DNA from: an uncultured delta proteobacterium
GTDB lineage: Bacteria; Desulfobacterota; Desulfobacteria; Desulfobacterales; B30-G6
Direction of reading: 5' to 3'
DNA length: 64,000 nucleotides
NCBI GenBank assembly: GCA_963823335.1
Contig: CAWGLD010000005.1
Coordinates: 256,001 to 320,000 of the forward strand
Every line of letters starts with the position of its first letter. The first letter of the stretch is position 1. The notes under the pieces are model-generated. The model searched no databases. It worked only from the letters and a program-made list of their open reading frames with translations, and had not been told where the DNA came from. Position numbers and translations under genes: made by a program. Below, piece after piece: positions 1,262 to 54,828 of the stretch.

Positions 1262-2176
1262 GTGGAACAGATGAATTTACGCTCCCTATTGATCTTTTCT
1301 CTGATAATCCTGGGATCGATATTTTCCTCCCCGGCCTGTGCTCAAAAGGTCAATGTTACGGACCTGCTGGGGCGACGCATGGCCATACCCAAAGATCCCG
1401 TGCGGGTGGTGTCCCTGGCGCCGAACATCACGGAGATCGTCTATGCACTGGGGCAGGCGCATCGCCTGGTGGGCGTCACGACCTACAGCGATTACCCGGC
1501 AGAGGCCGCCTCACTTCCCAAAGTCGGTTCTTATGTCCATCTCGATCTGGAGCGCATCGTATCCCTGGCGCCGGATTTATGCCTGGCCATCAAGGATGGC
1601 AACCCCATAGCGGCTGCATCGCGCCTGGAATCTTTAGGTATACCGGTATATGCTGCCGACCCGCGGGATCTTGAGAGTGTCATGGATACCATGTCCAGAA
1701 TCGGCAAACTTTTACAGGCCGATAAACAGGCAGAACAACTCGTGCAAGGCATGCAGCGTCGGATCCAGGCAGTGGAAGACCTGGTGGCCAAAACCGACCA
1801 CCGGCCGGGTCTGTTTTTTCAAATTGGTGTATCACCCATCGTATCCGTGGGAACCAACACATTTATCCATGAATTGATCATTCGGGCCGGTGCCAGGAAT
1901 CTTGCGGAGGGAGATGTTTCGTATCCAAGATTCAGCAAGGAGCAGGTATTGGGGATGATGCCGGATATCATCATTACGTCTTCCATGGCCCGCGCAGACG
2001 TTTTTGAGAAAATTAGAGCAGATTGGTACCAATGGAAGAATCTGCCGGCGGTAAAAAATGATCGAATTTATTTTCAGGACTCGAACCTTTTCAATCGGCC
2101 CTCACCCAGACTTGTGGATGCTCTGGAAATCCTGGTGCGGTTGGTCCATCCTGAAATGTTCAAGGAAGGTCCATGA
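1262..2176 (+). CDS. btuF: Cobalamin/iron-siderophore ABC transporter periplasmic binding protein
   Basis: Signal peptide, RVVSLAPNITEIVYALG, DYPAEA, RPSPRL motifs; B12 riboswitch locus. Confidence 0.85.
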   Translation: MEQMNLRSLLIFSLIILGSIFSSPACAQKVNVTDLLGRRMAIPKDPVRVVSLAPNITEIVYALGQAHRLVGVTTYSDYPAEAASLPKVGSYVHLDLERIVSLAPDLCLAIKDGNPIAAASRLESLGIPVYAADPRDLESVMDTMSRIGKLLQADKQAEQLVQGMQRRIQAVEDLVAKTDHRPGLFFQIGVSPIVSVGTNTFIHELIIRAGARNLAEGDVSYPRFSKEQVLGMMPDIIITSSMARADVFEKIRADWYQWKNLPAVKNDRIYFQDSNLFNRPSPRLVDALEILVRLVHPEMFKEGP

Positions 2177-3183
2177 ATAGAGACCATTCTTATATTATAA
2201 AACGTTTATCAACGGTTTCCGGGCTGTTGCTGATCGTTCTGGTGGCTGTGATGCTGGTGGGTATTTCCATCGGGTCTTCCGGGAGCGGGGTCACATCTCT
2301 ATGGCACATCGTCACGGATCAGGATCAAGCAGATCCTATGCTCTTCACCATTATATGGAAGCTCCGTTTGCCAAGGGTATTGCTGGCTGCACTGGTGGGG
2401 GCGGCGCTTTCTCTTGGTGGCCTGGTATTTCAGGCGATTTTGAGAAACCCCCTGGCAGAGCCCTATATTCTAGGAATATCCGGGGGGTCGGCCATCGGTG
2501 CCATTATAGGGATATTGCTGGGACTTTCCCAGTTTCCGGGAATCACCCTGACATCATTTGCCGGCAGTCTTGCTACGCTGCTGCTGATTATTGGTATTTC
2601 CGCGGGGCAGTCGATTCTGCAAAAAAACGCCCTGCTTCTGTCCGGTGTGATGGTGAATGCCTTTTGTTCGGCCGTGATCATGTTTCTGGTCTCCATGACC
2701 CATGACACACGTCTTCACAATATCATCTTCTGGTTAATGGGGGATCTGTCACTGGGGAACCTGCAGCATACCGGAATTCTGGCCTTGGCTTTGATCCCCT
2801 GCTTCGCGATTATTTTCTGGTTTTCAAACACCATGAATCTCATGCTGATGGGAAAGGAGATGGCCCTGAGCATGGGGGTGAATATCAAGCGTGCCACGGT
2901 CATTCTGCTGGTAACGACGTCGTTGATGGTGAGCGCCTGTGTCAGCCAGTGCGGGCTCATCGGATTTGTAGGGCTTGTCATTCCCCACCTTTTTCGCCTG
3001 ATGCTGGGGTCTGATCATCGGATTCTGTTACCTGCCTGTATTCTGGGAGGGGGGGCCTACATGGTTGTCTGTGATCTACTGGCAAGAGCCCTTCCCCAGC
3101 ACGGGGAAATGCCGGCAGGGGTGATAACCGCATTGATCGGCGCACCGTTGTTTATCTATCTTCTCAAACGGAGCGGACGATGA
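2173..3183 (+). CDS. btuC: FecCD/BtuC-family ABC permease
   Basis: LRLPRVLLA, RNPLAEPYILGISGG, GLIGFVGLVIPH motifs; overlaps btuF stop (ATGA). Confidence 0.88.
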   Translation: MNRDHSYIIKRLSTVSGLLLIVLVAVMLVGISIGSSGSGVTSLWHIVTDQDQADPMLFTIIWKLRLPRVLLAALVGAALSLGGLVFQAILRNPLAEPYILGISGGSAIGAIIGILLGLSQFPGITLTSFAGSLATLLLIIGISAGQSILQKNALLLSGVMVNAFCSAVIMFLVSMTHDTRLHNIIFWLMGDLSLGNLQHTGILALALIPCFAIIFWFSNTMNLMLMGKEMALSMGVNIKRATVILLVTTSLMVSACVSQCGLIGFVGLVIPHLFRLMLGSDHRILLPACILGGGAYMVVCDLLARALPQHGEMPAGVITALIGAPLFIYLLKRSGR

Positions 3184-3977
3184 AACACGCCATCGCCCTG
3201 GAAAAGATCCAGTATTCCTATGCCAGGACACCGGTATTGCGGGATATTACATTTTCGGTGACCCCGGGTGATTTTTTCATTATCATAGGACCCAATGGAT
3301 CCGGAAAAACAACCCTGATGAAACTGATTGCAGGCATCGTCCCGCCGGACAGCGGCTTGTTGAATATTCTTGAGCGCCCGATTCATTCCTACAGCCGAAA
3401 GATCCTGGCAAGACAGATCGCATTTGTGCCCCAGTCGGTTCCCATTGACTTCCCCTTTACCGTAAAAGAAGTTGTATTGATGGGGCGATCTCCCTACCAG
3501 GGGATGCTGGGTCTGGAAAACAAAGAAGATATGGAAAAGACCCAGCAGGCCATCACTTTTACGGGCATGACGCATCTGGCTGATCGAAACATGAATCAGT
3601 TGAGCGGTGGTGAATGTCAGCGGGCCTTTATCGCCAGGGCCATTTGTCAGGAGCCGAGTGTGCTTCTTCTGGACGAGCCAACGGCATCTCTCGATCTCTC
3701 TCATCAGATACGCATCATGGACCTGATGGAAAAATTAAAAGCGGAAAAACAGATCACAATTGTCATGGTGTCGCATGATGTGAATCTGGCTGCCATGTAT
3801 GGTAACCGTTTGCTGTTGCTTGACAAAGGTCGTATCGCCGAAATCGGCCCGCCCCGGGAGGTTCTGACATACCAGAATCTTGAGAAATCCTATGGTTGTA
3901 CGCTTCTGGTGGATAAAAACCCCCTGGGGGATGTTCCCAGGGTGACCCTTGTTCCAGGGAAATTTGTGCCCAAATAA
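3180..3977 (+). CDS. btuD: ABC transporter ATP-binding subunit (BtuD/FecE-like)
   Basis: Walker A GPNGSGKT, LSGGECQR, LLLDEPT. Confidence 0.88.
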   Translation: MKHAIALEKIQYSYARTPVLRDITFSVTPGDFFIIIGPNGSGKTTLMKLIAGIVPPDSGLLNILERPIHSYSRKILARQIAFVPQSVPIDFPFTVKEVVLMGRSPYQGMLGLENKEDMEKTQQAITFTGMTHLADRNMNQLSGGECQRAFIARAICQEPSVLLLDEPTASLDLSHQIRIMDLMEKLKAEKQITIVMVSHDVNLAAMYGNRLLLLDKGRIAEIGPPREVLTYQNLEKSYGCTLLVDKNPLGDVPRVTLVPGKFVPK

Positions 3978-4024: not shown

Positions 4025-4088
4025 GGTTTATAGGTTCGAAAAAATAAAATAGCTTGACGAACCTTCCAATATTCATTATCAGCTTTAT

Positions 4089-4297
4089 AAGGTTCAGGTG
4101 CGAATCGATTCAAAAATAACAATGATATTTTTGAATGCTTAACAGGGAACTCCGTTAAATTCGGAGACGGACCCGCCGCTGTAACCCCTCCCTGATCACA
4201 GGGAACCCTTTCAGCCTCTGCGAGCCACTGTTCTGCTATAATAAGGATGGGAAGGCCGCTGAAAGGGTGGGGGAGTCAGAAGACCTGCCTGAATCTT
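4089..4297 (+). ncRNA. Cobalamin (AdoCbl) riboswitch
   Basis: P1 aaggttcagg/cctgaatctt, aacagggaa, cccgccgctgtaa, gccactg...gggaagg, B12-box gagtcagaagacctgcc; lies upstream of B12 uptake genes. Confidence 0.95.
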
Positions 4298-4355
4298 GGA
4301 TGGCGTCCCCGTGGCCAGGGACCCATTGACAGATCAGTGGATAAAAAAGGGCAAT

Positions 4356-4387
4356 CCCGGATCGATGCAATCGGTCCGGGTTTTTTT
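4356..4387 (+). terminator. Intrinsic terminator, riboswitch expression platform
   Basis: cccggatcgat-gca-atcggtccggg followed by T7. Confidence 0.85.
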
Positions 4388-4463: not shown

Positions 4464-5252
4464 ATGAACATGAAAAAAATGATGTGGGTTATTGTGGGTC
4501 TGCTTTTCCTGTCGATTCCATCGGCAGATGCTGAAATCGTAACATTCGACGATTTAAATCTCGGTCCGGACTCTTTTTACAATGGTTCTGACGGAGCTGG
4601 TGAATTCGAGAGCAATGGCGTTGTCTTCAATATATTTTACGATGACGAATTTGGCCCCTATTGGGAAGGCGTTGCCTACTCCAACACCACCGATACGACC
4701 ACACCGGACTTTACAAATCAATACAGTGCCATTACCGGAACAGGCGCCGATAACTCCAGCATCTATGGTGTCGCCTATTTGGGATTCTACGGTATCATAC
4801 CTACCATCACTTTTGCAGATGAAGTCAATCTTGCCAAGGCCTATATCACCAACACCACCTACGCATTCTTGGCTATGCAGGATGGAAATGCGCCTGCCAA
4901 AAAATTTGGCGGAGACGACGGAGATGATCCGGACTGGTTTTTATTGACCATTACCGGAAAAGATGTGGATGAAAACGTTACAGGTGTTATCGAATTCTAC
5001 CTGGCGGATTTTCGTTTTGCTGACAATTTACAGGATTATATTATTGATGATTGGACTGCCGTAGACCTTGGCAGTCTAGGCATGGTCAAGACGGTCGAAT
5101 TTTCTGTTTCTTCATCGGACGTGGGTGATTTTGGCATCAACACACCCACATATTTTGCCATCGACAGCATCGTCATCGATGATGATGATGGCGGCAATGG
5201 CGGCAATGGCGGCAATAATTCCACCTGCTTTATACGCTCTTTGGGTATGTAG
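4464..5252 (+). CDS. Secreted DUF4465-family protein (putative corrinoid-binding) with C-terminal CFI tail
   Basis: Sec signal (SADA|), YWEGVAYSN, NQYSAITG, YITNTTYA, KKFGG...DWFLLTITG, NTPTYFAID; Gly/Asn linker then TCFIRSLGM*. Confidence 0.8.
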   Translation: MNMKKMMWVIVGLLFLSIPSADAEIVTFDDLNLGPDSFYNGSDGAGEFESNGVVFNIFYDDEFGPYWEGVAYSNTTDTTTPDFTNQYSAITGTGADNSSIYGVAYLGFYGIIPTITFADEVNLAKAYITNTTYAFLAMQDGNAPAKKFGGDDGDDPDWFLLTITGKDVDENVTGVIEFYLADFRFADNLQDYIIDDWTAVDLGSLGMVKTVEFSVSSSDVGDFGINTPTYFAIDSIVIDDDDGGNGGNGGNNSTCFIRSLGM

Positions 5253-5325
5253 TAAAGCCATAAGTCATAAGCGCTAAGCTGCTCACAGCTTACACCTTAT
5301 AGCTTAAAGCTTACCGCTTTTAGCT
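5253..5325. repeat. Degenerate heptamer inverted-repeat element
   Basis: (aagccat/aagtcat/aagcgct)n followed by (ttatagc/ttaaagc/ttaccgc)n. Confidence 0.7.
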
Positions 5326-5337
5326 GCAAGAACAACC

Positions 5338-7377
5338 ATGATACGACATCGAAAAATAAATAGCTTTCCCGGCGTGATCTTCTTGGGTCTTCTTCTCCTT
5401 TTATTGCATATGGGCAACATCCCCTCGTTACAGGCCCAAGAGACGCCGGAGGAGCGTACGGTTTCTGAAACAGGGCAAAACCCGCCGCGTTTCGAGCTGG
5501 ACGAAATTGTGGTGACCGCCAGTGCTATGCAAGAACCCCTCAATACCGTTCCCAGAAACATAACCGTGGTTACCCGCGAGGACATCGAACAGGCTCCCAG
5601 CAAGAACATTGTGGACCTGTTGAACCGTGAGGCCGGTATCAATATGCGCAGTCTTTTCGGCAGTGACAAACAGGCGGTTATCGACATGCGTGGTATGGGG
5701 GCCACCGCGGCCAGCGATGTCATTGTCATGGTGGACGGCATCCGTATGAACTCATCGGACATGTCCGGGGTCGATTTTTCCAGCATTCCACTGGAGATGA
5801 TCGAGCGCATCGAAATTGTCCGGGGAGCCGGGTCAGTTATCTACGGCAGCGGAGCGGTGGGTGGTGTGATCAACATCGTGACCCGTAAAGGTACCCCTCA
5901 TAAGGAAACGAGGCTCTATGCCGCCTATGGCAGTTACGACACCAGAGATACACGGGCCGGTATGAGTGGCAGTGTTCAAGATCTGGGATATCATCTTAGT
6001 GCCGGGTACTATGATTCCGAAGGTTACCGGGATAACGGTGATCTGACCAAAAAGGATCTGGGGGGTGTCTTTGACTATTTTCTCACGGATATGATCACCT
6101 TGAACCTGTCCGGGGCCTACCACAAAGATGACTATGGACTGCCGGGTCCCGTGGGAAAACAGGATGTCGACTCCGGCAAAGACCGCATCAAGACCGATTT
6201 TCCCAAAGACGACGGGGAAACCATTGATAAACGAATCTCCGGTGGGTTTGATATCGATACAGATCACTGGGGATCCCTGAAGCTGGATGGGGGTTTTCGC
6301 TGGCGGAACAATCAATATATCGTGGGATACAGCCCCCTGTTATCGAAATCCGACCAGACAGACGAAATCGAAGAAAAATCAAATACCATGACACTGATCT
6401 ATGAAAAAGGCTATTCTCTTTTTGAACGGGCACATACATTTCAGCTCGGTATGGATCACTTTTTCACCGATTATGTACGCGAAGAGAATCCCGGGGGGCC
6501 ACGACAGAACAGCCAGATGACCTCGTTGGGTATTTTTACCAATAACCACTGGGCTTTATCCGAAAAGGCAGAATTTCAGTGGGGCTACAGGGTGAACCAG
6601 GTGGACGTAAAATTCCGCACAGATGAACAGGTTTCGTTTGGGGGGGTTCAGCGCTGGGTAAATGGTGATACCGATCACCCCGATTGGCGGAACACAGCCT
6701 ATGATGTGGGCTTGACTTACCGTTTGTTATCCGGGTTGACCATGTACACGAACTATGCCGCCCATTTCAGGGTTCCCAATGTTGATGAGCTTGCCGAGGC
6801 CGAACCGGGTCTGAAACCTCAGGAGGGAACCCAGGTGGAAGCGGGAGGACGTATGCAATTCGGCGATAACATGGAAGCTGCCATGACCCTCTTCACTATC
6901 ACCATCGAGGATGAAATATATTTCAGCGAAATCAACCGCAATTATGACCACAAGACAGTTCGAAACGGCATTGAAACAGATCTAAAATGGTACCCCAAAC
7001 CATTTTTGTTCATTTGGGGCAACTATTCTTATACCGAAGCAAGATTTAAAGGGGACGATGCGACGGTGCCGCTGGTTCCCCGCCACAAGGGATCTTTGGG
7101 CGTCGAGTGGGAGGCTGTACATGGTTTGACCCTCTCTGCAACCGGTACGTATGTCGGCTCGAGATATGATGGCAACGATGTGGACAACGACCGTTATGAG
7201 AAACTGGATGCCTACCAGGTCTTTGACACCAAAGCGACCTATGGGAAAAAAAGTCTCACGGTTTTTGTCGGTGTCAACAACCTTCTGGATGAACGATACG
7301 AAACGTCTTCATTCAGCGAAAGCTATTACCCCATGCCCGGCCGGAATTATTATGCCGGGGCGGAGATGAAGTTTTAA
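5338..7377 (+). CDS. btuB: TonB-dependent outer membrane receptor, probable cobalamin receptor
   Basis: TonB box DEIVVTA, plug IERIEIVRGAGSVIYGSGAVGGVINIVT, C-terminal PGRNYYAGAEMKF; downstream of the B12 riboswitch. Confidence 0.85.
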   Translation: MIRHRKINSFPGVIFLGLLLLLLHMGNIPSLQAQETPEERTVSETGQNPPRFELDEIVVTASAMQEPLNTVPRNITVVTREDIEQAPSKNIVDLLNREAGINMRSLFGSDKQAVIDMRGMGATAASDVIVMVDGIRMNSSDMSGVDFSSIPLEMIERIEIVRGAGSVIYGSGAVGGVINIVTRKGTPHKETRLYAAYGSYDTRDTRAGMSGSVQDLGYHLSAGYYDSEGYRDNGDLTKKDLGGVFDYFLTDMITLNLSGAYHKDDYGLPGPVGKQDVDSGKDRIKTDFPKDDGETIDKRISGGFDIDTDHWGSLKLDGGFRWRNNQYIVGYSPLLSKSDQTDEIEEKSNTMTLIYEKGYSLFERAHTFQLGMDHFFTDYVREENPGGPRQNSQMTSLGIFTNNHWALSEKAEFQWGYRVNQVDVKFRTDEQVSFGGVQRWVNGDTDHPDWRNTAYDVGLTYRLLSGLTMYTNYAAHFRVPNVDELAEAEPGLKPQEGTQVEAGGRMQFGDNMEAAMTLFTITIEDEIYFSEINRNYDHKTVRNGIETDLKWYPKPFLFIWGNYSYTEARFKGDDATVPLVPRHKGSLGVEWEAVHGLTLSATGTYVGSRYDGNDVDNDRYEKLDAYQVFDTKATYGKKSLTVFVGVNNLLDERYETSSFSESYYPMPGRNYYAGAEMKF

Positions 7378-7570
7378 GGGCAGGGTATGGATCTGAGGGT
7401 TGGAGGGGTAAAAGGGCAGGGTTGGAGGTTTGGAGGGTGCAGGGCTAAGAGAGCAGGAAAAGGAATTGTCTAGTTTTATTCTATCATATAAAACCTGATC
7501 CTTTGGGCCCGGGTTTCTACTGTTTAAAAAATCATATAATACTATAAGTTATATCGAGTAACTTAAAGTT

Positions 7571-8416
7571 ATGGTTAAGGTAAATGTAACAAGTATGATT
7601 AAGAAAAACATGATTGGCTTTCTTTTTTTTACGATGCAGTTGGTTGCTGTGTCGCTGACCTGGGCGGGGCCTTATCCACCCAGTGCGGACGAGTTCGGAT
7701 CCCATGCCATATCCATGAATGATTCTGCGCTGATATCCTGGGCCATCGGATACAGCGACTATCTTGTGGGGCAAAATGTGGATAAGACCTGGCAGGTTCC
7801 GGGAAATGCATTGGGGCCGGCAGAAGGTAATTCCTTTGACATCGTCGCCTTGGGAAGCGGCGGCAGGATCACGCTGAGATTTGATCCGCCCATCGAAAAC
7901 GGTGAGGGCTGGGATTTTGCTGTCTTTGAGAATTCTTTCAGCGATCGATATCTGGAACTGGCTTATGTAGAGGTTTCATCCAACGGAATTGATTTTGTTC
8001 GTTTTGATGCCATTTCTCTGACCCCCCATCCCGTACCGGGGTTCGGTAACATCGATCCTACGGATGTGGATGGTCTGGCCGGTAAATATCGACAGGGTTA
8101 CGGGACCCCTTTTGATCTCGAGGAGATTTCGGATAAGCCCGGAGTGCTTTCCGGAGATGTCGACCTTTCCAGTATATCCTTCATCAGAATTGTCGATGTC
8201 GTTGGTGACGGTACCTTTCTGGACAGTCTCGGGGAGGTCATCTATGATCCATATCCCACGGCCGGTAGCGCGGGATTCGATCTCGATGCCGTGGGGGTTT
8301 CAAACGGCGCACCTTATCCGGACGGCGAATATATCCCACCCAGCGCCCCGCCGGAAAATGGCGATTCCGGGTTTGGTGAGGATACGGGGTGCTTTATTTC
8401 AGCAGTGCTGTCGTAA
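7571..8416 (+). CDS. Secreted cell-surface-type protein with C-terminal CFI tail (start may be ATG 7595)
   Basis: Signal peptide (LTWA|), [13 protein letters not shown]...DFAVFENSF...[18 protein letters not shown]; Pro/Gly linker then GCFISAVLS*. Confidence 0.75.
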
Positions 8417-9038
8417 AAATAGCCAGATTTCCCAGGATATGGATGGTTATGGGCACCATGAGGTTTTTTTCTTTTTCATAGGCCAGGGCAAACAGGATGC
8501 CGCCGACGATCTGTGGCAATGGAATCCGATGGAAGATTGCATGGGCCAAGACGAAGGCAGTCGTGCTGAAAAGAAGCGCCGCCCACATTCCCCAGCGCCG
8601 GAAGTACCCATAGAGCATGCCCCGGAAAAAAATCTCTTCGGCCACCGGACTGATGATACCGCCCACCACAAATAATAAAAACAGGCCTGGTTGTGTTGAG
8701 GAGATATTGGCGGCAATCAGATCTGCGGGATGCAGACCAGTTATCATCAGAATGACAGCCACCAGACCGACCATCAATCCGAACCCCGCCGACCAGAGAA
8801 ACCCTCTTAACAGACCATAGGTGATACGTTTCGGGAGAATACCGAGTGTTTTGATGCCGCCTGACTCGGTCATGTAGACGATCGTCAGAAGGAGTATGAT
8901 TTCGAGACTCCTGGCGCCACCGACAATGAGAATGGCTGCAGCGCTAAGGTTGTTCATGAGCGTTGCCAGCGATTCAATTATCAGAATGGCCGCCATGCCA
9001 AGCCCTACAGTTTTCAGTTTGATGCGATCTGTTTCCAA
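8394..9038 (-). CDS. CPBP (CAAX protease/Abi) family intramembrane glutamic protease
   Basis: EEIFFRG (EExxxR), FVLAH (FxxxH), IHILGN (HxxxN); multiple transmembrane segments. Confidence 0.9.
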
Positions 9039-10537
9039 CCCAGTTTCCTCAGTGCATTATAGGCGTATAACTGGACATACCAGTGATCAGACGTCTTAAT
9101 AGTTTCCAGAAGTCTTGCCGTGGTTTTCCGGAATTTCCTTTTTCCCATGCTGTAAAGCGCCTGACACACCACATTGGGGTGGGGATCTCGCATGAGGGTG
9201 ATCAGGTGTGTTTCGTCATCGGGGTGCCTGCCTGTTCCCAGGTTTCTGGCCAGCCAGTAACGAACCGGTATCGATGGGTGCTGTGACAGGTCTTTGGTAA
9301 GATCGAATTGATGCAGATCCAACCTGTTTGCTTCAATCTGCTTGAGTGCCTGGACCGTATCTTTCCAGTTGTCCGACGCAAGCATTCCGGGCAGGCTCTC
9401 AATTGTGAGGTCTTTTTTATCCCGCATGGGCATCAACATGAGCAACAGGATGCCCAACAGGCAGCAGACGACGATGCCGGCAATGGCAGATGACTGCCTG
9501 CCAAGGAAGCATGAGAATCCCCGGCACAACAGTCCGTTGAACAGCCAATAGAGTATCAGGGGGAATCCCACCAGCAATGATATTGATGTTGCTGCGCGAA
9601 AATGGATATAGGCATCATTGCTCTTGGACAGATCCTGCAGGATTTGTCGCGTATTTTCAAAAAAATCCTGCAGATCCGTCTCTATGACTGCCTGTCGACT
9701 TCCAGACAATCGTATACGTTCTTTTTCGACCGTGACTTCAAGGTCCGCCTTTCCCCTTCCATCGATCAATAAATAGTCGTAGTTGCCGAGCTTTCTTTTT
9801 AATTGCTTATATTCCCGGGAACCTTCTGACCCCGAGAGGTGATAGGTCTTGATCAGTTTTTGATTCAGGTTGCGAAAGACTTCTGCTGGATACAGGGTAT
9901 ACTGATAATAGAAGTCGTTGAGGTGTACGCCCGGAGCATTCGACAATAAAAGGTTGTCTCTGATATTGATATAGAGAGAGGCATTCATCTGGGTCGACCA
10001 GAGAAAGGCCAACAGCGAAACGACCAGAAAATGCAGCGATAGCGTCAGCCGGGAATGCCGTCCCGGATCGTTGGGGCTTAAAAGCAGGAAAAGTATGACC
10101 ACAACAGCAGGAATAAGGATGGCATGCAGGGTCGGCATGAGCACGAAGCCATGCCAGTTAAGGGCTGTTATCGACGATGCCCACAGCCCCAGGAAGACAA
10201 ATAGAAAACCCTTGTTCATGCGGCACAGGTATTTCCAGATCCAGACACACGCCAGGGATGCCAGAGAAATGCCCACCCCTACAGTGAGGGTGAAAAAGAG
10301 CCCACCGTTAAAGGCAGGGGATATCATTTTGAGTGTCGGTAATATCTTTTGGTTGGGGACCGTGAGAAAGCCGGCCTGGGCAAGCCAAAACATTTTCTCA
10401 TAAAGCGCCAGGTTGCTGATGAATACCTGTACCGTGCCAATTGTCTGTGCCAGGAGTAGGCCGGAACCGACAGATATGGATGCTGAAAACCGTGTTTTCA
10501 ATGTGCAGGTTCCTTTTTGTCTCGGAGCTATGAACAA
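9014..10537 (-). CDS. Multi-pass membrane protein with C-terminal HEAT-like repeats
   Basis: About 7-8 hydrophobic segments; C-terminal VRYWLARNLG, DPHPNVVCQALYSMG, WYVQLYAYNALRKL; overlaps the protease start. Confidence 0.7.
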   Translation of the reverse strand: MFIAPRQKGTCTLKTRFSASISVGSGLLLAQTIGTVQVFISNLALYEKMFWLAQAGFLTVPNQKILPTLKMISPAFNGGLFFTLTVGVGISLASLACVWIWKYLCRMNKGFLFVFLGLWASSITALNWHGFVLMPTLHAILIPAVVVILFLLLSPNDPGRHSRLTLSLHFLVVSLLAFLWSTQMNASLYINIRDNLLLSNAPGVHLNDFYYQYTLYPAEVFRNLNQKLIKTYHLSGSEGSREYKQLKRKLGNYDYLLIDGRGKADLEVTVEKERIRLSGSRQAVIETDLQDFFENTRQILQDLSKSNDAYIHFRAATSISLLVGFPLILYWLFNGLLCRGFSCFLGRQSSAIAGIVVCCLLGILLLMLMPMRDKKDLTIESLPGMLASDNWKDTVQALKQIEANRLDLHQFDLTKDLSQHPSIPVRYWLARNLGTGRHPDDETHLITLMRDPHPNVVCQALYSMGKRKFRKTTARLLETIKTSDHWYVQLYAYNALRKLGWKQIASN

Positions 10538-40911: not shown

Positions 40912-43900
40912 ATGGCACCCTTAATGAAGAAAGCGCCTCATATGGAAATGAAAAAAAAAATCCAAGAATATGTCCGATCCTTGAAGGCCTCCAAACGCTT
41001 GGGAGGCCAGGTTGTTTTCCATAAAGTCATTCCAGAGGAAACAGGGACCTGGGGAGAGCCTGTAGAGGCGTGGCCTGAAAAAATAGGACAGATGCTCCAC
41101 GATGCAGATATCCAAAGACTCTTTGCTCATCAGGCCCGGGCCATCGATCTCGTGAGAGCCGGCGAGCATGTGGTGGTGGCCACACCAACTGCCAGTGGAA
41201 AAACCCTGATATACAATCTCGTGGTCATGGATAGGTTTCTGGTACGACCGGATAGCAAGGCCCTCTACATGTTTCCTTTGAAGGCGCTTGCCCAGGATCA
41301 GCTTCTCAATCTGAATAAATTCACGGCCGCTCTGGAAGGCCGGATACCGACCGCGGTTATCTATGATGGGGATACGTCTGCATGGCACAGAAAGCGCATC
41401 CGAGAGAAGCCGCCCAATGTCATCATGACCAACCCGGAGATGCTTCACTTGTCGTTTCTACCGCATCACCCCCGTTGGGCATCTTTTTTCTCGGGGCTCG
41501 AAACGATCGTGGTGGATGAGGTTCACACCTATCGCGGTCTGTTGGGATCGCATATGTCCCAGGTGTTCAGGCGCCTGATAAGGGTGTGCAGTCATTATGG
41601 TTCATCGCCGGTTTTTATTTTCAATTCGGCGACGGTGGCCAATCCGGACCAGCTGGCGCAGCAGCTCACAGGCCTTGAGGTGCGAACGGTTACAAAGAGC
41701 GGATCACCCAAAGGGAAGCGGCACCTTCTGTTTGTGGATCCTGTCGACAGCCCGGCCCAGACGGCTATATTGCTGCTGAAGGCGGCCCTGCGACGAAATT
41801 TGAGAACGATTGTCTACACACAGTCGCGCAAGATGACCGAGTTGATCGCCATCTGGGCTGGAACCCAGGCCGGAGAATATGCGGACCGGATCAGTGCATA
41901 TCGGGCCGGATTTCTACCGCAAGAACGACGAGAGATCGAGTCTAAACTGAGCAGGGGAGAACTACTGGCAGTTATTTCCACCAGTGCCCTGGAGCTTGGT
42001 ATCGACATCGGCGACCTGGATCTTTGCCTGCTGGTGGGATATCCAGGAACCATCGTGTCCACATGGCAGAGAGAGGGGAGGGTGGGAAGAAGCGGACAAG
42101 AATCGGCCATGATACTCATTGCCGGTGAGGACGCCCTGGACCAGTATTTCATGCGGAATCCGGAGGATTTTCTTCGGAGAAGTCCTGAAGCCGCCGTGGT
42201 TAATCCCTTTAACCCGAACATTCTTGCCCGGCATGTCGTCTGTGCGGCCAATGAGCTGCCGTTGTCAAAGGGCGAAGCCTATATGCAGCCGAAACAGATT
42301 GCGGCGGCGGTATCGACACTTGAAACAGACGGAGAACTGCTCCGGAGCGGGGAGGGGAATCAATGGTTTTCGAGCCGCAAGACGCCACATCGCCGGGTGC
42401 ATCTGCGGGGTAACGGTAATCAATATGCCATCGTGGGCAGCTCCGATGGTGAAAACAAGGGTGCTATCGACGGTCTGCGGGTTTTTAAGGAGACCCATCC
42501 CGGTGCAGTTTATCTGCACAAGGGGGATACTTATTTAGTGGACACCCTGGACATTGAAACAAACACCGTCAGGGTTACACAAGCTGAGGTTGACTACTAT
42601 ACACGGGTTCGGGCGCACAAGCAGACGGATCTTCTGGAAATCTATCATGAAAAGCAAGTTGCGGGCACCCGGGTGTTTACGGGCAAGCTCAAGGTCACGG
42701 AACAGGTAAGTGGCTTCGAGCGCTGGCGTATACGAGGCCGGAAATTCATGAACCGGGTGTCGTTGGATCTTCCAGAGTACACATTTGAAACCGATGGAAT
42801 CTGGTTCGAGATTCCCGCCCCTGTGCAGACGGAAGCGGAATCCCGGTACCTGCATTTTATGGGGGGCATACATGCCATGGAACATGCCGCCATCGGGATG
42901 TTTCCGCTGATCGTCATGACGGACAGAAATGATCTCGGGGGAATTTCCATACCGTATCATCCACAGGTGGGATCGGCTGCCGTTTTTATCTATGACGGTA
43001 TTCCGGGTGGTGCCGGCCTGTGCAGTCAGGCATTTTACAGAGCTGAAGATCTGTTGGATGTCACCCTGAAAGCCATTCAGACGTGTCCTTGCAGGACGGG
43101 ATGCCCGTCCTGTGTGCATTCCCCGAAATGCGGGTCAGGAAACCGTCCCATCGACAAGGCATCGGCAATATTTATTTTGAAAAAGCTTCTGCAGATGCCG
43201 GGGGATATTGTGGATATATCCGGCGATTTTGCTGCGGACCAAAGCAGACATTCAGCGCAATCCCGGGAAACTCACAGTCCAGGGAATTCATCAACCCTCC
43301 GGAGCGATGTGGGGATGCTGCCATCCATGCAGGAAAAAGAGTCCCAGGTATCGGGGCCCTGTGGAAACCCCAGCGGCGATGATGCAAAAGGACCAGAGTT
43401 GTCAGGGCCTTTGGTGGTGGACCGATCCCCTGCCAGAGGAACCAGCATGGATCGATTGGGTGTATTCGATCTCGAGACGCAACGATCGGCCCAGGAGGTG
43501 GGAGGGTGGCATCGGGCTGACCTCATGAAGGTCAGCTGTGCAGTGCTTTACGATGCCGGAGAGCAGGTGTATCACGAGTACCTCGAAAAGGATATGCCTC
43601 GATTCATCGAGCGCCTCCAGCAGTATGATTGTGTGGTGGGATTCAATATCAGTCGTTTTGACTACAAAGTCCTCAGTGGCTACTCGAATTTTGACTTCAA
43701 GAGCCTCTTCACCCTCGATTTGCTGGCAGAAATTCACAAGCAGTTGGGGTATCGATTGTCTCTGGATCATCTGGCCAAGGTAACCCTGGGGTCACAAAAG
43801 TCAGCCGACGGGCTGCAAGCCTTACGCTGGTGGAAACAGGGAAAGATCCGTGAAATCATCGACTACTGCAGGCAGGATGTGCGGATCACATGGGAAATTT

Positions 43901-43980
43901 TTTGTTACGGGAGAGAAAACGGTTACCTGCTGTTCCAGAACAAGGCCGGCAACACCGTGCGGGTGCCGGTCAGCTGGTAA
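40912..43980 (+). CDS. DEAH-box helicase with DUF1998 (MrfA/SftH-like) fused to a C-terminal RNase H-fold DEDD exonuclease (YprB/MrfB-like)
   Basis: PTASGKT, DEVH, TSALELGID, CPCRTGCPSC; after a linker FDLETQ...GFN...FDY...YCRQDV. Confidence 0.88.
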   Translation: MAPLMKKAPHMEMKKKIQEYVRSLKASKRLGGQVVFHKVIPEETGTWGEPVEAWPEKIGQMLHDADIQRLFAHQARAIDLVRAGEHVVVATPTASGKTLIYNLVVMDRFLVRPDSKALYMFPLKALAQDQLLNLNKFTAALEGRIPTAVIYDGDTSAWHRKRIREKPPNVIMTNPEMLHLSFLPHHPRWASFFSGLETIVVDEVHTYRGLLGSHMSQVFRRLIRVCSHYGSSPVFIFNSATVANPDQLAQQLTGLEVRTVTKSGSPKGKRHLLFVDPVDSPAQTAILLLKAALRRNLRTIVYTQSRKMTELIAIWAGTQAGEYADRISAYRAGFLPQERREIESKLSRGELLAVISTSALELGIDIGDLDLCLLVGYPGTIVSTWQREGRVGRSGQESAMILIAGEDALDQYFMRNPEDFLRRSPEAAVVNPFNPNILARHVVCAANELPLSKGEAYMQPKQIAAAVSTLETDGELLRSGEGNQWFSSRKTPHRRVHLRGNGNQYAIVGSSDGENKGAIDGLRVFKETHPGAVYLHKGDTYLVDTLDIETNTVRVTQAEVDYYTRVRAHKQTDLLEIYHEKQVAGTRVFTGKLKVTEQVSGFERWRIRGRKFMNRVSLDLPEYTFETDGIWFEIPAPVQTEAESRYLHFMGGIHAMEHAAIGMFPLIVMTDRNDLGGISIPYHPQVGSAAVFIYDGIPGGAGLCSQAFYRAEDLLDVTLKAIQTCPCRTGCPSCVHSPKCGSGNRPIDKASAIFILKKLLQMPGDIVDISGDFAADQSRHSAQSRETHSPGNSSTLRSDVGMLPSMQEKESQVSGPCGNPSGDDAKGPELSGPLVVDRSPARGTSMDRLGVFDLETQRSAQEVGGWHRADLMKVSCAVLYDAGEQVYHEYLEKDMPRFIERLQQYDCVVGFNISRFDYKVLSGYSNFDFKSLFTLDLLAEIHKQLGYRLSLDHLAKVTLGSQKSADGLQALRWWKQGKIREIIDYCRQDVRITWEIFCYGRENGYLLFQNKAGNTVRVPVSW

Positions 43981-52400: not shown

Positions 52401-53834
52401 TTAACCAAAAGTAGGTAGTTTAGATGCCAAAAAGTGTTCCCCGTTGGAGATTATATCAGAACTATCCTCAGGACTGATCGGGTTGTTCAATAGCTCACAA
52501 GTCCTGTCTTTTAAGAGTTTATCGGCTCCTGGTTTTCCCAAATGCCTCCATTTATCAAGAGACAACTGCGGCCATATTTTGCTCGTAAACTGTGATTCTT
52601 TGAAGTATTTTCCGGTAAGGTTTGACAAGAAAAAATCTCCGCCAGCGCCGATGGAGGTTATTTCGGTCAATCCCACTTCTGCATCTTCCAGGGAAAATCC
52701 GGACGAGAAGATACGTGTCTGTTGAATTAAGTCATCGGCCAACACTACGATTTCGGGAGAGAAGACCAGTGAATCAAAACTGCTTCCCACGAATGGAACC
52801 AGGCCAACAGAACTCAATGCGCTGGTGAGATGGTTGATGCACATGGTCGTTGCGGTAAGCAAATCCGCACCCCACCCGTTTCCACAGCCGGATGTACCGC
52901 AATGGGGGATGTTGTAGGTGGTCATCATTTCAGCGCATGCCAGATTCAGCAACAATGACTTTGGAGAATAAAAACTGCCGGCTTGCTTCATGTCAAAGGC
53001 TGCCGGAAGACTTCCCAGGATGATGGGTGTTCCTTGCTTTACGAGCTGACTGTACACCAGTCCTGCCAGCAATTCCGCCGTAAGCAGTGCCAATGTTCCG
53101 GCTGGTGTGATCGGACAGGTCGCACCGGACATGCCGTAGTTTGAAAATATAAGTGGCAGCCCTCTTTTTATGGTTGCTTCCATTTTTATAGTGGTTTCAG
53201 AATTCAATACCAGCGGAGTGATCGGGTTCACATAGGGGATCACAAAAGGATGGGTGCTCAAATCACCGTGGAGGTGTTCACAAAGATCCAAGGCTGCATG
53301 AAAACAACCCGGATTGGAGATGAGCAACACGATCGGCTTGGTAGTATGAGCCACCATTTCCAAAACACCATAAAAATCAGCGGATTCAGGAGGAAGATCC
53401 TGGATAACGCCGGGGGTCGAAATCAAATCGAAGCCCTCAAGGCTGTGTCCAAGCCCAGTGGAAGCAGCCATATGTTTTCGGCAAAAAGGCAGGATTTCCT
53501 CCTTAAAGGGATCCTGGTAGTAAAGATTGGTAACACCGATGCCGAAAACAGCATCCAAACTCCCATCCCCTTTAAGTTCGAAGCAGGGTTTACCCAGACG
53601 GTCGTACACCTGTATACTGGATGGTGTGGAGGCAATCGCCCATTGAACGAGTTCTTTGGGCAGCCTTATGCAGTGATCCTTGTGGGTGGCTCCGATGGCT
53701 TTTTTCAGCACGGATCGGGCGCCTGGATCGTCAACGATCACACCTGTTTTCTCTAGAATTGATAGCGCATCCCGGTGCACTTTATTCACTTGCTCTTTCG
53801 TCAGAACCCTTATCTTCGGCTTCAGATCATACAT
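52401..53834 (-). CDS. Trimethylamine methyltransferase (MttB) superfamily protein, non-pyrrolysine type
   Basis: LTKEQVNKVHRDALSILEKTGV, NPITPL, MSGATCPITPAGTL, ELLAGLV; no in-frame TAG. Confidence 0.88.
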   Translation of the reverse strand: MYDLKPKIRVLTKEQVNKVHRDALSILEKTGVIVDDPGARSVLKKAIGATHKDHCIRLPKELVQWAIASTPSSIQVYDRLGKPCFELKGDGSLDAVFGIGVTNLYYQDPFKEEILPFCRKHMAASTGLGHSLEGFDLISTPGVIQDLPPESADFYGVLEMVAHTTKPIVLLISNPGCFHAALDLCEHLHGDLSTHPFVIPYVNPITPLVLNSETTIKMEATIKRGLPLIFSNYGMSGATCPITPAGTLALLTAELLAGLVYSQLVKQGTPIILGSLPAAFDMKQAGSFYSPKSLLLNLACAEMMTTYNIPHCGTSGCGNGWGADLLTATTMCINHLTSALSSVGLVPFVGSSFDSLVFSPEIVVLADDLIQQTRIFSSGFSLEDAEVGLTEITSIGAGGDFFLSNLTGKYFKESQFTSKIWPQLSLDKWRHLGKPGADKLLKDRTCELLNNPISPEDSSDIISNGEHFLASKLPTFG

Positions 53835-53969
53835 GGATTACATTGCCTCATACGATGCCAAGCATTGCTATCTAAACCCCTAAGGATTTCCCAAAGGGTA
53901 AACAACATGGCTGAATGGAAGTCATTCTTATTTTTCACCTGCAGGGGCATCCAAAAAATAGCGCTTTTA

Positions 53970-54047
53970 CAAGGATTTCTATTGATTTTTATTCGCTCGC
54001 TGGACCCCGTGCAAAGCCTCGCGGAATGCACTTGTTATCGCGGTTCA
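53970..54047. repeat. Degenerate copy of the 23715 palindromic repeat
   Basis: aaggatttct...attcgctcgctggaccccg...ggaatgc...gcggttca; its TGA end is the GntR stop codon. Confidence 0.6.
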
Positions 54048-54713
54048 AGCAGTCAAATAGCCGTCTGGGAGAAGCCTTTCTAAATCAATGCCTCTCAAGC
54101 TGCTCTCCAAATGATTTTTTATTTCATTTCCAGCTTTTTCGGCTTCGTTTATCTCCAGGTATCGCACAATTTTGCGGTGTTCCTGTGGTGAAGGGTTGTT
54201 TGTCATTAGAAGTTGGTAAAACGGATCAAATAAGATAAGATAAATAGTTGTTTTCTGCAATAGCTCGGTCACGTAATGAACAAGCACTCGGTTGCCTGAT
54301 TTTTGTGCGATCTTTAAATGAAAAGCACTGTTGATTTGATAATATTTATCTAGTTTCCTGTCAGTAAAAACGCTTTCCTCCTCACAAATCAACGTTTGAA
54401 GTGCATCAATGTCTTCAGGATCAAATTTCCCAGCAGCCAAAGTGGTTGACATCTTTTCAAGTTGGGCCCGAACCTGAAATGACTCCTTAATATCCTCCAG
54501 AGACGGGTTGACAACGGAGACCCCCTTGTTCTGCCTATATTCCGCAAGACCTTCGTGGACAAGTCGTTTGAAAGCCCCTTTAACTGTGGCACGGCTCATC
54601 TTTAAATTCTTGGCCATTGGGACTTCTTTGAGTTTTTCCCCTTTTTTGATGTAGCCTCTGCTAATAGCAACCTTGATCTTTTCGTACGCCAAATCTTCCA
54701 AGTTATCTGTCAT
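54045..54713 (-). CDS. GntR/FCD family transcriptional regulator
   Basis: N-terminal wHTH (AYEKIK...MSRATVKGAFKRL), FCD domain NSAFHLKI...EHRKI. Confidence 0.9.
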   Translation of the reverse strand: MTDNLEDLAYEKIKVAISRGYIKKGEKLKEVPMAKNLKMSRATVKGAFKRLVHEGLAEYRQNKGVSVVNPSLEDIKESFQVRAQLEKMSTTLAAGKFDPEDIDALQTLICEEESVFTDRKLDKYYQINSAFHLKIAQKSGNRVLVHYVTELLQKTTIYLILFDPFYQLLMTNNPSPQEHRKIVRYLEINEAEKAGNEIKNHLESSLRGIDLERLLPDGYLTA

Positions 54714-54828
54714 CGATACCTCCGGCATCCAAAGCAACAAACTAAAATGATTACGGTTTGAGACAATACGAGCCGGTTCTTCAGTTTTCGTGCATGCAAG
54801 GAATGCTTTGGATCGTTCTCGTTTCGCA

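Follow-up and report, generated by a model that had tools for sequence, protein, structure and literature searches.

A short cysteine-bearing C-terminal tail at a cobalamin-riboswitch locus of a Desulfobacterales bacterium, and a CPBP protease/HEAT membrane protein pair as its candidate sorting machinery

How might exported proteins of a corrinoid uptake system be held at the cell surface when they carry neither an N-terminal lipobox nor a C-terminal membrane helix? The question is raised by a locus (4464..10537) in a 64,000-nucleotide stretch from an uncultured delta proteobacterium (Desulfobacterales, B30-G6; GCA_963823335.1, contig CAWGLD010000005.1, positions 256,001 to 320,000 of the forward strand), the whole of which we call the window. 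The locus is a corrinoid (B12) uptake locus under a cobalamin riboswitch, and its operon on the + strand encodes, in order, a DUF4465 (BtuJ-like) protein predicted to bind corrinoids (4464..5252; 262 amino acids), a TonB-dependent receptor (5338..7377) and an exported protein without a Pfam family, here called P3 (7571..8416; 281 amino acids). Convergent to this operon, on the - strand, lie genes for a CPBP (Rce1-like) glutamic intramembrane protease (8394..9038) and for a seven-transmembrane (7-TM) protein with a C-terminal HEAT domain, here called HEAT-TM (9014..10537; 507 amino acids). The DUF4465 protein and P3 both end in a short tail that begins C-F-I. We consider it moderately probable that these tails are a minimal, helix-less form of the CFI-box sorting signal, and that the machinery recognising them consists of the CPBP protease encoded next to them and the 7-TM/HEAT protein that is translationally coupled to it.

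The initial annotation had described both proteins as exported, CFI-tailed and free of a lipobox and a C-terminal helix, and direct reading of the sequences confirmed this description. The DUF4465 protein ends in ...GGNNSTCFIRSLGM (the tail being shown as ...NNSTCFIRSLGM), with C-F-I-R-S-L-G-M (5226..5249, + strand) as its C-terminal residues. P3 ends in C-F-I-S-A-V-L-S (8390..8413, + strand); its codons, read directly, place TGC at 8390-8392 and the stop at 8414-8416. Each tail consists of G/T-C-F-I plus five residues, and its cysteine, the eighth residue from the end, is the only one in the protein (C255 in the DUF4465 protein, C274 in P3). Since the first 30 residues of both proteins hold no cysteine, neither has a lipobox; by reading, their N-termini resemble type-I signal peptides (...LSIPSADA/E and ...VSLTWA/G). 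Nor does either tail form a C-terminal transmembrane helix, the seven residues after the cysteine being too short to span a membrane. The DUF4465 protein is thus built of a signal peptide, an Asp/Gly/Asn linker and the short CFI tail. Across the window, CFI followed by 2-10 residues at the end of a frame occurred in two of the 395 stop-to-stop frames of at least 60 amino acids, just these two proteins, where about 0.41 such frames were expected by chance from the window's own CFI frequency. To judge from the sequences, it is conservation, more than this count, that is the real proof of non-randomness.

Conservation was followed in the P3 family, to which 6757 of 8000 scored candidates belong. 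G-C-F-[IVL] was retained in all 120 listed relatives (59-98% identity), with I at the last position in 86, V in 32 and L in two; the positions after C-F-[IVL] favour T/S/A and then I/L/V, and the mature body of 82 of the 120 contains no other cysteine. Spacing is looser. Between five and 49 residues follow the tail cysteine (five to nine in 91 of the 120), and in P0045 and P0052 the box is extended by a hydrophobic helix. The cysteine at exactly -8, to which the initial annotation had drawn attention, is therefore true of both window tails but is not conserved, and we dropped it as a defining feature; also dropped was the idea that the tail is the artefact of a truncated PEP-CTERM, as all 120 listed relatives keep a short or box-led form. 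Orthologues of the DUF4465 protein at four related loci (L001, L006, L009 and L021) retain C-F-[IV]-x-x-x-G. On the evidence of these alignments, the tail is a conserved C-terminal signal and not noise.

What kind of signal it might be is suggested by the ends of other DUF4465 proteins. The window protein belongs by sequence to the DUF4465/BtuJ-like class (PF14717, 180 bits; NTPxYF loop; a B12 transport locus), matches the solved B12 binders 9FCT (E 4.4e-22) and 9HMU (E 1.4e-20), and was also aligned to 9QPM; its NTPxYF loop aligns in the comparison with all three. According to the portion of PMC13398666 available to us, the family binds B12 and most of its members are N-terminal lipoproteins, about 30% having a periplasmic targeting signal only. 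We classed the C-terminal ends of the best 150 DUF4465 representatives by regular expressions and found one short CFI tail, six CFI boxes within the last 45 residues (in several, a hydrophobic stretch and a basic end come after the box) and 11 PEP-CTERM-like ends; many other representatives end in C-terminal domains of the type IX secretion system (T9SS) type, as judged by eye. The tail slot is swapped among PEP-CTERM-like, T9SS-type and CFI ends, which is the pattern expected of an anchoring signal.

The same 150 representatives bear on how the two tailed proteins relate to one another. They had been annotated as apparently unrelated, a description that does not hold at the level of function: a P3-like region lies within the same polypeptide in 34 of the 150 (37-59% identity over about 180-280 residues). 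In these fusions (among P0361-P0510) the P3-like domain often stands N-terminally in proteins of 1200-2600 amino acids, and P0472 and P0478 combine it with DUF4465 and a PEP-CTERM-like end. Because of these fusions, P3 is probably a second module of corrinoid capture. P3 itself matched no Pfam family, and its profile gave nothing meaningful against PDB sequences (best E 0.89); members of its family match the LIC_13355 lipoprotein family consistently but far below threshold (13-18 bits versus 120), which is a lead only.

That both window carriers are encoded in a B12 riboswitch operon, and that each has its sole cysteine in the tail, would also suit a reading in which the tail is an element of B12 capture instead of a sorting signal, its cysteine being a ligand for the corrinoid cobalt or the tail a docking peptide for the TonB-dependent receptor. 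We find this very improbable. Subtilases, C25 peptidases, propeller/PKD proteins and Ig-domain proteins, all outside any B12 context, end in the same tail; PEP-CTERM-like or T9SS-type ends take its position in DUF4465 relatives; and in the solved relatives it is jellyroll loops, rather than a C-terminal tail, that are described as holding B12 (PMC13398666, available in part). We therefore dropped the tail as a corrinoid ligand. The tail is instead probably a surface-anchoring tag, handled, as its genomic setting suggests, by the neighbouring membrane protease and its partner.

The protease gene beside P3 encodes an unambiguous CPBP family member (PF02517, 66.4 bits versus a gathering cut-off of 22.4) with the EExxxR, FxxxH and HxxxN motifs, whose residues E134, E135, R139, F162, H166, H200 and N204 were invariant in all 34 aligned relatives. 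Residues 1-14 are conserved in these relatives, which supports the TTG start at 9038. A profile search with the protein returned a single chance-like match, to a kinase. The catalytically intact protease that the initial annotation had placed beside the second tailed gene, in convergent overlap, is thus borne out, the overlap with P3 measuring 23 nucleotides (8394-8416). In the closest relatives (L001, L002 and L004-L006) the P3 and CPBP genes lie 213-317 nucleotides apart.

HEAT-TM consists of seven hydrophobic segments, a large loop and a C-terminal HEAT domain (HEAT_2, 34.3 bits); its start may possibly lie 12 codons further in, as in relatives of 495 amino acids. In a profile search of PDB sequences, positions about 392-489 matched HEAT-repeat (alphaRep) chains down to E 5.8e-22, and the membrane part matched nothing. 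An Atlas look-up of the homologues P0277 and P0005 returned only clusters of 'hypothetical protein', mostly from Thermodesulfobacteriota, together with weak leads (0.82-0.87) to PEP-CTERM-bearing clusters.

We then asked how regularly the two genes travel together. A scan with the CPBP alignment, at one genome per species, gave 248 confirmed relatives; all counts of loci below refer to the best 80 of these 248. By their titles, all but two of the loci belong to Desulfobacterales, Syntrophales/Syntrophaceae, Deltaproteobacteria or Thermodesulfobacteriota (78/80); L023 is given as 'Pseudomonadota bacterium', and L040 as 'Olavius sp. associated proteobacterium Delta 1'. HEAT-TM adjoins CPBP on the same strand in 72 of the 80 (69 upstream, three downstream), is nearby but separated by a gap in three, and is absent from five, two of which stop at a contig end. 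In the window the start of CPBP lies within a 25-nucleotide overlap with the HEAT-TM gene, and an overlap of exactly this length recurs in 64 of the 67 loci where it could be measured. The coupling noted in the initial annotation is therefore real, but HEAT-TM is more than an accessory: it is an almost obligate partner. One protein, P0283 (456 amino acids), has the C-terminal half of HEAT-TM in frame with a full CPBP, joined exactly at the 25-nucleotide overlap; as a single sequence from one contig, it may be a natural fusion or the product of a one-base sequencing error.

The association between the pair and CFI-tailed proteins was assessed at the same loci, using a simple picker of open reading frames (ORFs) that yielded 912 closed ORFs and counting as a short tail CF[IVL] plus 2-14 residues at the ORF end. 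Short tails were found in 22 of the 912, where 2.7 were expected from the internal frequency of the tripeptides; the 22 genes are spread over 17 loci, 12 of them lie within 410 nucleotides of CPBP, and the median distance is 362 nucleotides. CFI was the commonest cysteine tripeptide near ORF ends (CFI 17 and CFV 4 of 141). Longer, box-led tails were present at six more loci (L003, L015, L024, L058, L067 and L076), which brings the loci with a CFI-box protein near CPBP to 23 of 80; this count leaves out a frame of 100 amino acids in L053 and, at the end of L007, a fragment of P3. As a proxy only, the longest contig of 16 or more of the 120 P3 clusters listed equals in length that of a listed CPBP cluster, some of these contigs measuring 1.7-3.6 kb.

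The carriers span at least seven unrelated families: P3, DUF4465, the unnamed cluster 61, PQQ-type propeller+PKD proteins, Peptidase_S8+fn3 proteins, Peptidase_C25 and a Big_2/Big_1 protein with Ig domains (1571 amino acids). A C39-like+fn3 protein is a further carrier near CPBP. On a protease tree of the window and 77 of the 80 loci (L005, L017 and L028 were omitted, their CPBP frame having been lost by the ORF picker), the presence of a CFI neighbour changes 15 times, and well-supported branches force at least 13 of these changes. The association is thus a recurrent one within the family and does not go back to a single ancestor. Judged from these neighbourhoods, the system is general in Desulfobacterota-type genomes, where the pair stands beside CFI-tailed subtilases, C25 peptidases, propeller/PKD proteins and Ig-domain proteins. 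The PorU-like Peptidase_C25 proteins of L058, L059, L076 and L078, which are relatives of the T9SS sortase, themselves bear a CFI tail or a full CFI-box-CTERM. We dropped this peptidase as a candidate processing enzyme, since it is a box carrier and its family occurs in only five of the 80 loci.

The B12 connection also extends beyond the window. A cobalamin riboswitch stands upstream of the homologous operon in L001, L003, L005, L006 and L021, and a second type of B12 operon was found in L008 (L008:2232-5791) and L048 (L048:3355-6978), in which a riboswitch is followed by a TonB-dependent receptor and then by the CFI-tailed cluster 61 protein (455-470 amino acids, with weak matches to beta-propeller repeats). 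Here the cluster 61 gene is overlapped by the upstream, riboswitch-controlled receptor gene and directly adjoins the CPBP/HEAT-TM pair; each of the two loci has an additional riboswitch upstream. Three unrelated accessory proteins of B12 uptake thus bear the tail in this lineage.

Is such a tail already known? NCBIfam catalogues the motif in two models, NF041763 (sort_motif_CFI, 'CFI-box putative sorting motif', 14 positions) and NF041770 (CFI_box_CTERM, 69 positions). As we read the definition from the proteins that these models match, the window tails fit it by description, having G-C-F-I behind a low-complexity linker, a few residues from the end of an exported protein. They resemble the models in carrying the G-C-F-I box at the C-terminal end behind a Gly-rich linker, and differ in lacking everything downstream of the box. 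NF041763 matches all four PQQ-propeller proteins (19.1 bits in L019, which passes the cut-off of 15.9 bits, and 13.8, 13.2 and 10.4 bits in the others), and found no match among 12 scanned members of the P3 family. NF041770 (cut-off 40 bits) matches neither tailed protein; of the window proteins scanned, only HEAT-TM gives a partial match, discussed below. A full CFI-box-CTERM protein (101.7 bits versus 40) is present in L058, about 8 kb from the CPBP/HEAT-TM pair, and in an hhalign comparison the tail of the P3 alignment paired with positions 1-18 of this full domain (E 5e-4). The initial annotation had proposed comparison with the CFI-box and JDVT-CTERM models, and the motif is catalogued under the first of these names, but the window tails score under the cut-off and lack the tripartite form with a helix.

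The NCBIfam models name no cognate protease or partner for the CFI-box. Searches under the name of the motif, the box string, the model numbers and the model names found no publication on it; CFI goes unmentioned in the portion of the myxosortase preprint available to us (10.1101/2023.06.07.544157); and among the papers listed on CPBP, C-terminal sorting, Desulfobacter and HEAT repeats, judged by title and the start of the abstract, there was none on this pair. The motif thus appears to be catalogued yet unpublished, and its machinery, secretion context and split-motif relation (see below) appear undescribed in the sources that we searched.

Of the characterised systems, MYXO-CTERM/MrtX of Myxococcus xanthus is close in several respects. 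There, a CPBP enzyme, MrtX, cleaves its signal in a cysteine-dependent manner, and Sec-exported clients reach the surface by way of a type II secretion system (T2SS), according to the available portion of PMC11980579. The likeness lies in the invariant C-terminal cysteine after a low-complexity linker, in the CPBP enzyme and in the tie to type II secretion, T2SS genes being neighbours of the pair here as well. The differences are that the window tails lack both a helix and an Arg cluster and read G-C-F-[IV] instead of the GCGC type, that the window protease stays under the Mrt cut-offs and has an almost obligate 7-TM/HEAT partner, and that the lineage is Desulfobacterota-type, not Myxococcota. 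JDVT-CTERM/MrtJ and Synerg-CTERM/MrtS supply the best-scoring named family models for the protease, and a JDVT-CTERM protease gene adjoins its client gene, yet their signals are tripartite with a conserved helix (10.1101/2023.06.07.544157, available in part). Such a tripartite signal, of the MYXO-CTERM, JDVT-CTERM or PEP-CTERM type, is not what the window tails present, with seven residues after the cysteine; it is found in the relatives P0045, P0052, P0396, P0481 and P0494 and at L015, L024 and L076.

Two further comparisons concern the ends of the chain. The tail had been likened to a CaaX box, and with the eukaryotic and archaeal CaaX proteases (Rce1, MmRce1) the system does share a near-terminal cysteine, aliphatic residues, the absence of a helix and a PF02517 protease. 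The tail is not a true CaaX box, however: in most of the P3 relatives listed, five to nine residues follow the cysteine instead of three, the substrates have signal peptides and are Sec-exported instead of cytosolic, and no prenyltransferase was seen here. With Bacteroides BtuG/BtuH/BtuJ, the window shares the DUF4465 fold family, riboswitch control, a TonB-dependent receptor and btuFCD, but those proteins are anchored by an N-terminal lipobox, whereas here an ordinary signal peptide is combined with a C-terminal cysteine tail.

The partial match of HEAT-TM to the long CFI-box model was a relation newly seen in this analysis. Conservation in the HEAT-TM family is highest in an R-D...N..G......Y-Y.Y-T motif (residues 188-223; 9869..9976, - strand) in the loop after the fifth hydrophobic segment, in which R193, D194, G203, Y210, Y211, Y213, T214, P217 and E219 are invariant in 50 sequences. 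This motif is common to the CFI-box-CTERM domain: positions about 18-47 of NF041770, just after the box, were matched by all nine HEAT-TM members scanned (the window protein at 14.0 bits, the eight others at 14.4-18.0), and by none of the other seven window proteins scanned or of 34 further proteins. When the HEAT-TM family profile was aligned to the L058 tail by hhalign, 36 columns were paired (P 6.1e-5, score 37.4); among the controls, the score was at most 28.9 in 100 shuffles, 13.4 for the reversed tail and 10.0 for the protease profile. From these comparisons, HEAT-TM is a protein that shares a motif of about 36 residues with the long CFI-box-CTERM domain of NCBI. In the long domain this stretch has to be periplasmic, because it lies between the exported box and the first helix. 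For HEAT-TM, hydropathy and the charge of the short loops suggest an N-in topology, which would make both the motif loop and the HEAT domain periplasmic as well.

Taken together, and by analogy, the system would be a myxosortase-like, cysteine-dependent sorting system. Corrinoid scarcity would turn on the DUF4465-receptor-P3 operon through the riboswitch, which is present upstream. The two tailed proteins would then be exported by Sec, as their ordinary signal peptides suggest. In the periplasm, the G-C-F-[IV]-x-[TSA]-[ILV] tail behind its Gly/Asp-rich linker would be captured at the inner membrane by the protease/HEAT-TM pair, with the motif loop and the HEAT domain of HEAT-TM predicted to face the tail's compartment. 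The single cysteine would be modified there, most likely with a lipid, and CPBP would remove the residues that follow it, as in CaaX/Rce1 and in the working model for MYXO-CTERM/MrtX. The anchored protein would finally be carried to the cell surface, probably by the T2SS, so that the B12 binders would sit near the TonB-dependent receptor as do the N-terminally lipidated BtuG/H/J of Bacteroides.

The export route is the step to which neighbouring genes speak most directly. Of the 80 loci, 21 contain T2SS genes (GspC, D, E, F, G, K, L, M and pseudopilins) and 15 contain two or more, which points to type II secretion as the route. In L013 (L013:827-10918) the HEAT-TM/CPBP pair lies inside a T2SS cluster, between the pseudopilin genes and gspG/gspF and on the opposite strand, and the pair is likewise embedded in L010-L014, L017, L025, L037, L071, L077 and L079. 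In eight to 14 loci (L072, L075, L076, L078 and others) it is flanked by OmpA-family, NTP_transf_5, unnamed 288-amino acid and PqqD-like proteins, and some of these loci contain exopolysaccharide genes (Poly_export, glycosyltransferases, GNVR kinase).

The modification step could take another form. The pair might process the tail by a different chemistry, either transferring the new C-terminus in one step to a lipid or glycan, as proposed for rhombosortase, or linking the thiol to an envelope component; we think this unlikely. In its favour, the pair has no recognisable lipid-transferase gene beside it, for MYXO-CTERM too the cysteine-modifying enzyme is unknown (PMC11980579, available in part), and the F, I/V, T/S/A and I/L/V that follow the cysteine are conserved like a recognition site. 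The CPBP enzymes studied so far, however, are hydrolases that act beside a modified cysteine (again from the available portion of PMC11980579), and no feature in our data indicates a transferase.

Modification followed by cleavage leaves a role to be filled, and here HEAT-TM comes into consideration. It is a tentative and rather doubtful proposal that the 7-TM/HEAT partner is the missing second component of cysteine-dependent CPBP sorting, being either the enzyme that modifies the box cysteine or a receptor acting in trans, which would make a two-component, split system. In the receptor version, HEAT-TM may supply the membrane-proximal R-D...Y-Y.Y module that the long CFI-box-CTERM domain carries in cis, so that a signal of six to ten residues without a helix could be sorted. 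In part of the lineage, such a split sorting system may be physically embedded in type II secretion operons.

Several observations weigh against a cognate relation of tail and pair as we have drawn it. No CFI-box protein was found in the flanking DNA of 57 of the 80 loci (median locus length 12.3 kb, versus 17.5 kb for loci with one), and CFI proteins may be so frequent in these genomes that the apparent adjacency to the pair is inflated. In the window the CPBP and HEAT-TM genes do not belong to the riboswitch operon and run on the other strand, and the 64 kb contain no T2SS genes, the remaining genes being housekeeping ones. The protease falls under every named myxosortase cut-off (MrtJ 42.7 versus 75, MrtS 39.6 versus 130, Mrt_core NF040914 16.2 versus 100 and MrtA 15.8 versus 200), and the window tails fail NF041763, the DUF4465 tail scoring 10.2 bits (E 0.5) and P3 giving no match at E up to 1. 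The HEAT-TM matches to NF041770 are below the 40-bit cut-off in every single sequence, and the hhalign probability of the match to the L058 tail is only 65%. A tail of seven residues has no helix that would bring it into an intramembrane active site. Finally, the P3 homologue of L024 (L024:13473-14282), in the same receptor-adjacent position, lacks the CFI box and ends in ...MPGVFLLLLGGQD; a different protein of 362 amino acids at that locus carries the box followed by a helix.

The loci without a box protein, together with the position of the pair outside the riboswitch operon and the many loci where its neighbours are instead T2SS, OmpA-family, glycosyltransferase, Poly_export or NTP_transf_5/PqqD genes, could be accounted for if the CFI tail were a true sorting or anchoring signal processed by some other enzyme, and the CPBP/HEAT-TM pair had another envelope function (for instance in type II secretion or exopolysaccharide biology) and lay nearby through the clustering of surface genes. 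This explanation strikes us as improbable, if a little less so than the alternative chemistry. More than half of the short-tail genes (12/22) are within 410 nucleotides of CPBP, the carriers represent several unrelated families and occur dispersed on the CPBP tree, HEAT-TM shares a motif with the CFI-box-CTERM domain itself, and CPBP enzymes are proven to process another cysteine-bearing signal (PMC11980579, available in part). Recognition of the tail by the adjacent pair remains the reading that we favour. The co-occurrence of tail and protease, which the initial annotation proposed to profile, is seen as clustering at the level of the locus, recurring at 23 loci scattered on the CPBP tree, but not at the majority, in whose flanking DNA no box protein was found. 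Its wider interpretation keeps the conserved signal, the anchor slot, the clustering of CFI proteins by CPBP and the B12 riboswitch locus, but needs changes in the CaaX comparison, the -8 position and the role of the HEAT protein.

The remaining features of the locus complete its B12 setting. Upstream on the + strand, genes resembling btuF (1262-2176), btuC (2173-3183) and btuD (3180-3977) precede the riboswitch operon (1262..3977 in all); each falls under the equivalog cut-off of its specific model (BtuF 144.4 bits, BtuC 242.8 bits, corrinoid ABC ATPase 245.7 bits) and exceeds the Pfam cut-off of its broader family (Peripla_BP_2, FecCD and ABC_tran, respectively). The riboswitch aptamer (4079..4306, + strand) covers the full RF00174 model (1-189) at 85.7 bits versus a gathering score of 31.5. 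It is followed by a terminator-like hairpin and T run (4356..4380, + strand; 11-pair stem with seven G-C pairs, then TTTTTTT), found by consensus scan only, whose position suggests that it is probably the expression platform of the riboswitch. The receptor (5338-7377; Plug 98.1 bits, TonB_dep_Rec_b-barrel 132.7 bits) is under the BtuB equivalog cut-offs (TIGR01779, 196.5 versus 599.7; NF007926, 161.7 versus 836), and we infer a BtuB-like role in B12 uptake from its riboswitch context. Elsewhere in the window, an MttB-family methyltransferase, a GntR/FCD regulator and an 820-amino acid DAO + GCV_T oxidase lie together at 52404-57291, in what looks like a cluster for methylamine or glycine-betaine utilisation, and a protein of 1022 amino acids at 40912-43977 has a DEAD/Helicase_C core, an MrfA Zn-binding domain and an RNase_H_2-like end.

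If the tail is sorted as we suggest, no shorter C-terminal sorting signal would be known from a diderm bacterium, and this one would work without a membrane helix, and a motif so far found only in a database would be tied to a concrete pair of protease and partner genes. HEAT-TM, a membrane protein that is translationally coupled to the protease and almost always accompanies it, presents a concrete candidate for the unknown cysteine-modifying enzyme of myxosortase-type pathways (PMC11980579, available in part). Thousands of 'hypothetical' proteins in Desulfobacterota genomes and metagenomes, to which P3 alone contributes its several thousand scored relatives, could then be annotated as surface proteins. 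The surface location of DUF4465 proteins that have no lipobox would likewise be explained, with a bearing on the competition for corrinoids among anaerobic sediment bacteria.

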